The notes below the pieces were generated by a model, which was given only the letters and a program-made list of their open reading frames with translations, had not been told where the DNA came from and did not search any database. The translations under genes and the position numbers were made by a program. Of a stretch of DNA of 63,311 nt, positions 39,095-39,929 are shown piece after piece (the stretch's first letter is position 1; the number at the start of each line of letters is the position of its first letter). This DNA is from a virus (Duplodnaviria; Caudoviricetes), in IMG/VR virus record IMGVR_UViG_3300037742_000095, positions 1-63,311 of that record; one strand, written 5' to 3'.

Positions 39095-39929
39095 CCAGAT
39101 GGAGCAGGCGACCGAGAAGCTGTACCTGCTGGCTTCCCAGCTGGATGGAATCGAGGAGCTGCGCAAGGCCACGGACAACCGGTTCCGGCAGGCCACCCGG
39201 TCCACCGAGGACTCGGATGGGGAGGTTCGGGGGTTCGGCTTCAGCCCGGATGACCCGGACATCGCGGCAATCCGCGCGACCAACGAGGGGCTGGCCAAGG
39301 TCGAGCACCAGGTGATCCTTCAGCTTCAGCGCGCGATGCGCCTGCACCCGCTGGGTGCCTGGCAGAAGCAGGCGCTCGGGGTGGGGGAGAAGCAGCTGGC
39401 ACGCCTGCTGGCCGCCATCGGTGACCCGTACTGGAACTCTCTGCACGACAGGCCGCGCACGGTCTCTGAACTGTGGGCCTACAGCGGTCTGCACACACTT
39501 CCCACCGGTCAACGAGGAATCGAGGCCCAAAGTGCCATCACCGGTGGGAACCAAACTGCCGCCCGCACCCTGGACCATGGAAGAACCGGTGACCACCCGA
39601 ACGGCGTCCGGGGTGCGGCGCGGCGTCAGAAGGGCCAGCGGGCGAACTGGTCCACCGACGCCAAGACCCGGGCCTACCTGATCGCGGAGAGCTGCACCAA
39701 GCAAACGCGCTCCCCGTACCGGGAGGTGTACGACAAGCGCCGGGCGGCTACCGCGGACCGGGTGCACGACCGGCCGTGCCCGCAGTGCAACGGGAAGGGC
39801 CACGCCGAGCTGGAGCTGACCCCTTGGCGGCCGGGCCACCAGCACGCGGACGCGCTTCGGATCGTGAGTAAGACCGTGCTGCGCGATCTCTGGGTAGCGG
39901 CCCGCGACTGGCACGCTGCCGACGATTGA
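39087..39929 (+). CDS. tasA: TasA-like Nop-domain RNA-guided DNA-binding protein (IS110/Nop-related, no nuclease domain seen)
   Basis: Coiled coil (EELRKATDNR), HPLGAW..ALGVGEKQLARLLAAIGDP, SELWAYSGL, SPYREVYDKRR, HQHADALRIVSKTVLRDLW; flanked by dual-spacer units. Confidence 0.82.
   Translation: MNDQMEQATEKLYLLASQLDGIEELRKATDNRFRQATRSTEDSDGEVRGFGFSPDDPDIAAIRATNEGLAKVEHQVILQLQRAMRLHPLGAWQKQALGVGEKQLARLLAAIGDPYWNSLHDRPRTVSELWAYSGLHTLPTGQRGIEAQSAITGGNQTAARTLDHGRTGDHPNGVRGAARRQKGQRANWSTDAKTRAYLIAESCTKQTRSPYREVYDKRRAATADRVHDRPCPQCNGKGHAELELTPWRPGHQHADALRIVSKTVLRDLWVAARDWHAADD
39499..39624 (+). ncRNA. TIGR-like units 6-7 (39499-39550, 39558-39624) inside the TasA-like CDS
   Basis: TTCCCACCGG-TCA-N9-CGAGGCCCA-N9-CA-CCGGTGGGAA; stem-CCA-N9-CGGTGACCA-N9-CG-stem. 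Confidence 0.85.

Follow-up and report, generated by a model that had tools for sequence, protein, structure and literature searches.

We suggest that positions 39499-39624 of the DNA analysed here, a complete virus record of 63,311 bp (the window), are very probably two stem-loop tigRNA units of a nine-unit TIGR array, written in frame in the wedge-loop insertion of a TasA gene. Judged from the sequence, the guides and the protein that binds them seem to be encoded by the same DNA. This arrangement has already been described for a related system, the TasA of Bifidobacterium longum (BlTasA), for which the available text of a preprint reports intragenic wedge-loop tigRNAs, with small RNA-seq detecting tigRNAs from inside the coding sequence (Xu et al., bioRxiv 10.64898/2026.09.09.750476); it is here confirmed and extended, and the phenomenon itself is not new. 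In such a segment the sequence has to fold as a guide, hold two 9-nt spacers and remain translatable all at once, a rare clean example of RNA and protein constraints overlapping.

The two units lie on the + strand of the tasA-type gene at 39087-39929. Unit 6 (39499-39550) encodes residues 138-155 and forms an 11-bp stem; unit 7 (39558-39624) encodes residues 158-180 and has a core with a 13-bp stem at 39563-39618. Both score 41 bits with a covariance model of the array. The original prediction, that two guide units are written in frame in a tasA-like gene, had placed them at precisely the limits of these two hairpins, and the frame of 39087-39929 does read through 39499-39624 without a stop. 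The fold of unit 6 is matched by 0 of 200 shuffles (z -3.20), the centroid structure of unit 7 by 1 of 200 (z -3.59), and that of the two units folded jointly by 0 of 200 (z -3.96). Their array-type character is borne out by a plan identical to that of the seven other units: the loops are 30-31 nt long, start with CA and carry CG and CCA at set positions. Unit 7 speaks against this in that its central loop is off the consensus, although it retains CG and CCA.

In the protein, units 6 and 7 amount to a 44-residue insertion immediately past the LWAYSGLH motif (residues 129-136), with the coded residues running from 138 to 180. The 5' arm of unit 6 overlaps conserved (T/V)LPxG codons and the 3' arm of unit 7 encodes a conserved VRGAARR segment. 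The insertion is predicted to be disordered (AlphaFold2 pLDDT <50 at residues 133-186), and profile alignment maps it between residues 213 and 218 of TaTasR, a protein whose wedge is given as G210-K230 in the methods of the preprint, as available (bioRxiv 10.64898/2026.09.09.750476). By their place in the wedge loop, their reading frame and the predicted disorder of the segment, units 6 and 7 are intragenic wedge-loop units.

The tasA-like identity of the gene, also part of the original prediction, is upheld by both sequence and predicted structure. The 280-aa product (P0001), a solo Nop-domain protein, belongs to the Tas family by sequence, matching NCBIfam NF052498.1 (TIGR_Tas_endo; cutoff 100 bits) at 208.6 bits over profile positions 2-215 of 215 and residues 13-273, and has profile matches to TasR (9mty_A, E 1.1e-18) and TasH (21kl_A, E 3.8e-11). 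Its AlphaFold2 model (pLDDT 79.3, pTM 0.73) opens with a coiled coil, with helices at residues 3-37 and 57-86; the predicted fold is of the Nop type and includes a coiled-coil hairpin for dimerisation. Foldseek places chains of TasR or TasH in all of its first ten ranks (probability 1.00, target-normalised TM 0.53-0.71), followed by Nop5, Nop56/58 and Prp31, all at E >1. The TasA subtype is a solo Nop domain that lacks an HNH or RuvC domain at the N-terminus. In P0001 the family profile begins at residue 13, and the search for a nuclease domain came up empty, Pfam giving no match at E <=1. P0001 is a nuclease-less Tas (Nop-domain) protein of the TasA type. The nearest relatives at the protein level are 74-82% identical. 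A PADLOC search returned no match for P0001 or for the partner protein described below.

We also considered, and rejected, an identity of P0001 as an IS110-family transposase: no DEDD/RuvC or Transposase_20 match appears in Pfam at E <=1, and the N-terminus is a coiled coil. The “transposase” label carried by phage homologues derives from phrog_4285 and from GenBank product names, and we attribute it to the Nop-like C-terminal domain that IS110 shares with this family. [quoted passage not shown]

That array comprises nine units at 38301-40050, on the + strand only, of which five are intergenic, two belong to the partner gene upstream of tasA and two to tasA itself. All are within 1.75 kb around tasA, and the covariance model places units nowhere else in the genome. 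Each unit reads, in order, variable stem, (C/U)CA, 9 nt, CG, 4 nt, CCA, 9 nt, C(G/A), stem, a pseudo-symmetric plan of box C, 9 nt and box D, twice over; the first spacer is N9 in all units except unit 3 (N10), and CA, CG and CCA are invariant in the nine-unit alignment. The plan is that of a stem-loop TIGR array, with two 8-12-nt spacers between box C and box D in one loop (nine of nine units), palindromic variable flanks forming the stem, and tandem units adjoining the tas gene on the tas strand. Three units occupy the intergenic leader: unit 1 (38301-38354; 12-bp stem, 30-nt loop, z -3.45, 43.3 bits), unit 2 (38364-38419; 13-bp stem, z -6.29, 40.5 bits) and unit 3 (38427-38483; 13-bp stem, 31-nt loop, z -4.05, 40.2 bits). 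Two more follow tasA on its 3' side, namely unit 8 (39935-39991; bulged stem, 36.3 bits), the fold of which is not significant on its own (z -1.17), and unit 9 (40001-40050; 10-bp stem, z -2.78, 45.2 bits).

Since only seven fixed bases are common to the units, a motif-plus-stem scan and a covariance model were used to find them. Tandem Repeats Finder did not recover the array, reporting just two short unrelated rows; a generic repeat search picked up no more than pieces of the central motif (D1) and isolated stems (I11, I24), and Rfam gave no match in 38000-40400 at E <=1. The motif-plus-stem scan yields seven strict matches (stems 10-13 bp), every one of them on the + strand within 38301-40050, and a single weak match outside the array with a 6-bp stem, against a mean of 0.96 matches per window (maximum 3) in 50 block shuffles. 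With filters off, the covariance model built from the nine units scores them at 33-45 bits and the best other site in 63 kb at 19.8 bits, a gap of 13 bits. In the nine-unit alignment 94.4% of stem cells are paired (65.2% when shuffled), with changes on both sides in 7/8 stem pairs.

Homologues were expected, under the original prediction, to carry an insertion of variable length at this site, and they do; the stems within it covary. An anchor-based test covered 47 distinct loci, with units found by their loop anchors and counted if they had at least 6/8 stem pairs; left out were nine loci with the first flanking motif only (three at contig ends, six with no pattern match to the second). At exactly the predicted site the insertion ranges from 8 to 105 aa, with stops in none of the 47, and its length follows the number of units (r 0.92). 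It holds at least one unit in 38 of the 47 loci and none detectable in nine, the range being 0 to 5, and phase 0 is common to 80 of the 83 units. Read from insertion lengths in 28 aligned proteins, the number is 0 to 3 units per insertion. Matches to the model lie on the tasA strand in 172 of 173 cases in 25 related loci (E <=1) and in all 191 in 39 further loci (E <=0.01), that is, in 363 of 364 among the matches listed.

For 24 in-gene units from 11 loci, 96.9% of stem cells are paired, as opposed to 68.9% after shuffling and 24-56% with the partner slid, and 52 stem cells show changes on both sides, a count biased by the choice of units with a model that has 8 stem pairs. Free of this bias are only the anchor-only tests and the stem extensions. 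When candidates are taken by anchors alone, with stems left unfiltered, 58 of 72 have at least 7/8 stem pairs and 14 have at most 6/8, in a run that over-counts units through overlapping matches, the stem-filtered run being the corrected count; the stems reach 7-16 bp in 21 of the 24 in-gene units, past the 8 bp of the model. When the window is compared with three related loci (L003, L004 and L035), spacers are 14-25% identical, a saturated value, stems 75% and boxes 75-83%, and the coding flanks, aligned with no gaps, 71-84%, with the upstream flank value of L035 (0.27) disregarded for a one-codon offset in the ungapped comparison. That spacer change is constrained to keep the frame open, as had also been proposed, is true in so far as the frame is open in 47 of 47 loci; the constraint is weak at the site of units 6 and 7, because the codon phase of the units leaves only some two codons in each spacer that could turn into a stop, a figure reasoned from the unit plan.

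A second gene takes part in the arrangement. The partner gene (38504-39094, + strand; 196 aa, phrog_4604), which is conserved, has a stop that overlaps the start of tasA, and the synteny of the two is kept in 11 loci. Unit 4 (38694-38745, + strand; 11-bp stem, 40.2 bits) lies in frame at residues ~64-81, in a linker predicted to be disordered (pLDDT <50 at residues 62-106), and unit 5 (38756-38818, + strand; 33.1 bits) has a bulged stem with 13-nt perfect arms (pair I24). The codon phase of unit 5 differs from that of its counterparts in L003 and L017, with the RNA plan retained. The partner protein has no NCBIfam match, and Foldseek found no PDB entry for it with E <6.6. Directly 5' of unit 1, at 38265-38293 on the + strand, a -35-like hexamer, 17 nt and a -10-like hexamer form a promoter-like element, to which we ascribe a putative promoter role. 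It is one copy of a repeated phage motif and has a 25-nt repeat (family D4; 88% identity) in common with 40074-40098, and a consensus promoter scan called only the second copy and not the one at 38265-38293. On the other side, a feature at 40054-40097 (+ strand) begins with a perfect 14-bp hairpin (40054-40087, pair I11), the 3' arm of which overlaps a promoter-like site at 40068-40097; this hairpin and the promoter-like site next to it likely mark the end of the module.

We envisage that a single transcript, starting from the promoter-like element at 38265, would cover units 1-3, the partner gene, tasA and units 8-9, and that RNAs of ~50-60 nt with 9+9-nt spacers would guide TasA to DNA. TasA bound at its target would repress and not cut, by analogy with TasA data in the preprint, which in its available text describes binding and repression rather than cleavage (bioRxiv 10.64898/2026.09.09.750476). 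Any one transcript could give full-length TasA or else the guide units 6 and 7, never both, and guide and protein outputs would therefore be linked. The idea of coupling between maturation and translation, which the original prediction also put forward for guide and protein levels, was already raised in the same preprint, as far as its available text goes (bioRxiv 10.64898/2026.09.09.750476). A split-spacer target search was run with both possible layouts and gaps of 0-3. Against the phage genome, the 9+10-nt spacers of the nine units have no match at <=2 mismatches; their matches all have at least 3, and two overlap the units themselves. The 9+9-nt spacers, searched against the genome and 0.30 Mb of related loci, match two sites (counted as four) with 2 mismatches, five shuffled-spacer controls giving 0-8. 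No DNA target thus emerges for any of the nine units in the genome or in these loci, a point against the guide role.

A broader reading, which we put forward tentatively and consider rather improbable, is that the guide array in this actinophage lineage is a translated part of the operon, with units in the TasA wedge and in the partner linker and, in relatives, with whole upstream arrays that are stop-free in the tasA frame; a transcript would then be translated or else diced into guides, and binding of TasA to units in its own mRNA and that of its partner would set the ratio of protein to guide. If true, this would be an autoregulatory circuit made of dual-coding sequence, and spacer turnover would be under protein-coding constraint.

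It is quite possible, if short of an even chance, that the units are passengers instead, the array having spread by in-frame duplication into a loop that tolerates it, with no selected coupling between guide and protein. The predicted disorder of the loop is consistent with this, as are its tolerance of 8 to 105 residues and the nine of 47 loci with no detectable unit; the single codon phase of 80 of 83 units would be expected if one founder had duplicated in frame, and units are also found in a second gene, in its linker. Against it, wedge-site units are still present in relatives at only 40-55% protein identity; conserved protein codons underlie the outer stem arms; and in 20 of 22 related loci the upstream arrays stay open in the tas frame, which suggests that the overlap itself is under selection. 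Regulation is not proved by any of these points. Passenger units might still fold and even give guides, and the overlap would then be a by-product of the tight packing of phage genomes.

Very unlikely, in our judgement, is an explanation at the protein level, with a functional wedge peptide carrying a periodic Asp/Glu-x-His/Gln and His/Gln signature and the hairpins as a side effect. A D/E-x-H/Q signature does recur in the translated units of homologues, and the wedge touches the tigRNA in solved complexes, according to the available text of the preprint (bioRxiv 10.64898/2026.09.09.750476). The non-coding leader and trailer units nevertheless share the nucleotide plan, unit 5 keeps its RNA plan in a phase other than that of L003 and L017, and the covarying stem pairs change through non-synonymous substitutions; moreover, the fixed residues are those coded by the invariant CA, CG and CCA, and the peptide is predicted to be disordered. 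Hairpins that arise by chance in GC-rich coding sequence, and other elements such as terminators, attenuators or repeats associated with transposases, have a negligible claim on the data and are ruled out, for although hairpins are common at the 67% G+C of the window, unit 8 folds no better than shuffles and the gene family is called “transposase” in phage records, these readings conflict with seven clustered scan matches where 0.96 are expected, the 13-bit gap between units and background, the 363 of 364 among the model matches listed that lie on the tasA strand, and the lack of any DEDD or Transposase_20 match in Pfam and of any match in Rfam.

Guide units embedded in the TasA wedge, the reading we favour, can be set beside several known systems. 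Bifidobacterium belongs to the Actinomycetota, as does the host of the window, judging by genome matches. Going by the description of BlTasA, the two systems further share stem-loop units in frame in tasA, the wedge loop and a disordered segment. Unlike BlTasA, the present case is a free phage genome known from sequence alone, and it has two extra units in a second, non-tas gene, for which the available text on BlTasA mentions no counterpart. Box C also differs, being CCA or (C/U)CA here, with no general CUU motif; in the preprint system, as described in its available text, CUU marks the processing sites and is itself box C (bioRxiv 10.64898/2026.09.09.750476). In the window, CUU is seen by eye at the stem base of unit 6 only (39498-39500) and not at the other eight units. 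A TasA array on a Peromyscus leucopus gut contig also pairs a nuclease-less TasA with flanking tandem hairpin units and has in common with the window, as far as it is described, two 8-12-nt spacers per unit, boxes C and D, variable palindromic stems and subarrays on either side of the gene; in contrast, its three subarrays flank the gene, and four of the nine units of the window are inside coding sequences (Faure et al. 2025, PMC12045711).

TaTasR, the protein of a dual-repeat TIGR-TasR system (PDB 9mty), has a homologous Nop core (E 1.1e-18; Foldseek probability 1.00) and a likewise pseudo-symmetric guide, in which box C is CCA and the spacers are 9+9 nt. It differs in having an N-terminal RuvC nuclease, which the window protein lacks, and ~4 residues (213 to 218) between the conserved blocks, as against the 44-residue insertion found here; its guides come from an array with fixed repeats, edge and loop, and are 36 nt long after processing. 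Eukaryotic box C/D snoRNAs hosted in introns are released with no loss of the mRNA. Like them, the units of the window would be box C/D-type guides in the transcript of a host gene, with both outputs from one precursor; unlike them, they would be part of translated, exon-like sequence.

We note that the arrangement occurs in this TasA clade across Actinomycetota phages and prophages. Among the members are phages isolated on Gordonia terrae (those of loci L002 and L016 have wedge units) and on Mycobacterium smegmatis, and the questions posed by the preprint should therefore be testable in easy phage-host pairs. These questions, as they stand in its available text, concern co-transcription versus internal promoters, the agent that cuts, and the coupling of maturation to translation. 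For annotation, the “transposase” genes in many actinophage records are TasA genes, and where their predicted products show “N-terminal extensions” or internal inserts of variable size, these would be translated guide arrays.

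The segment at 39499-39624 of this complete virus record (63,311 bp, G+C 67%) lies within a plus-strand gene at 39087-39929 that encodes P0001, a product of 280 codons. It specifies residues 138-180 without a stop, immediately C-terminal to the conserved LWAYSGLH motif (residues 129-136). As RNA, it folds into two long-stemmed hairpins, at 39499-39550 (z -3.20; 0 of 200 shuffles as good) and 39558-39624 (z -3.59; 1 of 200), with a joint z of -3.96 that no shuffle among 200 equaled. The span named in the original prediction coincides with the outer ends of these hairpins, and its claim that two guide units are written in frame in a tasA-like gene, without a stop, is borne out by the fold, the unit plan and the translation. 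We consider the observation of two in-frame units within tasA confirmed.

The plan of these two, which we number units 6 and 7, recurs in seven other hairpins of the interval 38301-40050. A script for loops that open with CA and then contain CG, 4 nt and CCA, closed by six or more stem pairs, returned seven matches within this interval, all on the plus strand and with stems of 10-13 bp, and one match, with a 6-bp stem, outside it; after shuffling in 300-nt blocks, matches averaged 0.96 over 50 shuffles and never exceeded 3. Units 5 (38756-38818) and 8 (39935-39991), also on the plus strand, have bulged stems and are additional to the script matches. Across the nine aligned units CA, CG and CCA are invariant and no other bases are common. 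Their stems have 94.4% of cells paired, against 65.2% when shuffled and 26-46% when the 3' partner is slid, with changes on both sides in seven of the eight pairs. The plan is symmetric (stem, (C/U)CA, 9 nt, CG, 4 nt, CCA, 9 nt, C(G/A), stem) and, as read from the sequence, is box C, spacer and box D, twice. It agrees with the stem-loop arrays described in the text of Faure et al. (2025; PMC12045711), in which box C and box D enclose each of two 8-12-nt spacers and the palindromic flanks vary. When the whole genome was scanned, filters off, with a covariance model built from the nine units, these scored 33-45 bits and no other place exceeded 19.8 bits. By eye, CUU at the stem base was seen for unit 6 only among the nine. 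No Rfam family matched at the array region (38000-40400, E up to 1), and no spacer targets were found in the phage genome or in 0.30 Mb of related loci.

The PHROGs database places P0001 in a family labeled "transposase" (phrog_4285, 299 bits), and a Pfam search of P0001 returned no family. The curated NCBIfam model NF052498 (TIGR-Tas) matches residues 13-273 with 208.6 bits, the cutoff being 100, and a profile of 28 homologues finds TasR (9mty_A) at E 1.1e-18 and TasH at E 3.8e-11. With the AlphaFold2 model (pLDDT 79.3, pTM 0.73), the best ten Foldseek matches are TasR or TasH chains, at probability 1.00, followed weakly by Nop5, Nop56/58 and Prp31. No nuclease domain was found in P0001, whose model begins with a coiled coil, and we conclude that it is of the TasA type as set out in Faure et al. 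(2025; PMC12045711). Aligned by profile, P0001 carries 44 additional residues at a point where TasR passes from residue 213 to 218; since this point falls within the TaTasR wedge, given as G210-K230 in a 2026 preprint (bioRxiv 10.64898/2026.09.09.750476), the insertion lies in the wedge loop. In the model pLDDT falls below 50 over residues 133-186, and most other residues exceed 90.

A protein search yielded 1589 homologues, the more distant of which have long N-terminal extensions. When 28 of the homologues were aligned, length varied internally only after LWAYxGLH, with insertion lengths that read as none, one, two or three units. DNA of relatives was fetched from virus, metagenome and genome collections, the last giving almost exclusively Actinomycetota. 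In 25 loci the nine-unit model made 173 matches (E up to 1), 172 of them on the tasA strand, as were all 191 matches at E up to 0.01 in 39 further loci. Units occur at the equivalent protein site in loci L003-L007, L009-L012 and L016. Of 24 in-gene units at this site, 21 have stems of 7-16 bp, exceeding the model's 8 bp, and the covariation anticipated for them was found: 96.9% of cells are paired, against 68.9% shuffled and 24-56% with the partner slid, and 52 cells are changed on both sides. Because these 24 units were picked by a model that includes the stem, we repeated the analysis from loop anchors within the segment bounded by two conserved peptide motifs. Of 72 candidates taken on anchors alone, with no requirement on the stem, 58 formed 7 or 8 of the 8 stem pairs; in slid controls 2.5-4.4 of 8 formed. 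When a unit was counted only with at least 6 of 8 pairs, and nine loci with the first motif only were excluded, 38 of 47 distinct loci carried at least one unit at the insertion. The frame is open across the insertion in all 47; its length ranges from 8 to 105 residues and follows unit number (r 0.92). The variable-length insertion expected here in Tas homologues is thus seen in both the protein alignment and these loci.

Between the window and the related loci L003, L004 and L035, the spacers of units 6 and 7 are 14-25% identical, the stems 75%, the boxes 75-83%, and the coding flanks, where they align ungapped, 71-84%. The fixed peptide positions in homologues are the codons of the invariant CA (His/Gln) and CG-N4-CCA (Asp/Glu-x-His/Gln), with CA at codon positions 1-2 in 80 of 83 units from the 47 loci. 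By comparison, a dual-coding reading of 39499-39624 is well supported. The original prediction also held that the open frame constrains the spacers. The frame is indeed open, and the constraint is real but, by our own reasoning, weak at the wedge site, with about two codons per spacer stop-capable in the phase used there.

Intragenic units in tasA are of a kind already known, and very recently described; the window adds another case. The text of the preprint (bioRxiv 10.64898/2026.09.09.750476) reports that stem-loop arrays can sit within tas coding sequence with the frame undisrupted, typically in disordered regions, and that intragenic tigRNAs of Bifidobacterium longum TasA were seen by small RNA-seq, mapping to the wedge loop; such tigRNAs, it proposes, may couple maturation and translation. 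It was the only literature found with both "tigRNA" and "intragenic"; "tigRNA" with "mycobacteriophage" gave only Faure et al. (PMC12045711), the second word standing in a reference.

The conserved partner gene upstream (38504-39094; phrog_4604) contains units 4 (38694-38745) and 5, both in frame. The ends of its product are conserved, and both units fall in its linker, which is predicted to be disordered (pLDDT below 50 at residues 62-106). The codon phase of unit 5 is 2 in the window and 0 in its L003 and L017 counterparts, the RNA plan being intact; it is the RNA that is conserved, not the peptide. No mention of units inside neighboring non-tas genes was found in the searched passages of the preprint (bioRxiv 10.64898/2026.09.09.750476). 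Among relatives, the tasA frame is stop-free across arrays abutting tasA upstream in 20 of 22 loci, and in 10 of 11 that had not been inspected previously; the arrays examined include those of L004, L005, L007, L010, L011, L013, L016, L019-L021, L041, L044, L048, L049, L052-L054, L056, L061 and L069. Stops across these arrays number 6 in the tasA frame versus 69 and 37 in the other two. Because the distance between units is not a multiple of three, each of the three phases is used in reading them. This pattern suggests that whole upstream arrays are translated as N-terminal extensions.

We suggest that one transcript would carry the nine units and both genes, and that the units would fold, be bound by TasA dimers and be trimmed by cellular RNases. 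By analogy with other TasA proteins, for which DNA binding and repression have been shown (bioRxiv 10.64898/2026.09.09.750476), the guides would direct the nuclease-free TasA to DNA, leading to binding and repression. Excision of units 4-7 would sever the coding RNA, and would therefore link protein and guide yields; such a link may be either a selected feedback or a by-product. A promoter-like phage motif, made up of a -35-like hexamer and, after it, a conserved C-rich block, flanks the module with copies at 38265 and 40068. It occurs at 32980-32997, 40068-40085, 52970-52987 and, with a gap one base shorter, 38265-38281. Allowing up to 3 mismatches there are 11 matches against 1.45 expected, and the motif probably represents a family of phage promoters or operators. 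Directly 3' of unit 9, a perfect inverted repeat at 40054-40087 (14 bp, 6-nt loop) may be a terminator or regulatory hairpin; the promoter-like site at 40068 shares its -35-like hexamer and the start of its spacer with the loop and 3' arm of this repeat.

Compared with X2, a contig run of a near relative from another sediment sample, unit 3 (38442-38470) has most of the listed differences in its two spacers, the central motif being unchanged and one stem pair going from G-U to G-C; in this one contig, at depth 4.8, the pattern looks faintly like spacer turnover between strains. Phage records matched by a search with 38200-40200 numbered 81 from Mycobacterium and 5 from Gordonia. Among the matches listed, 30 of 30 phage records align within tasA, with products labeled transposase, DNA binding domain protein or hypothetical protein. 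In the cluster A mycobacteriophage Bethlehem, the TasA homologue gp71 is annotated "transposase", and stem-loop units matching the model lie just upstream of it, between gp72 and gp71 (positions 1976-2274 of the fetched locus, L001).
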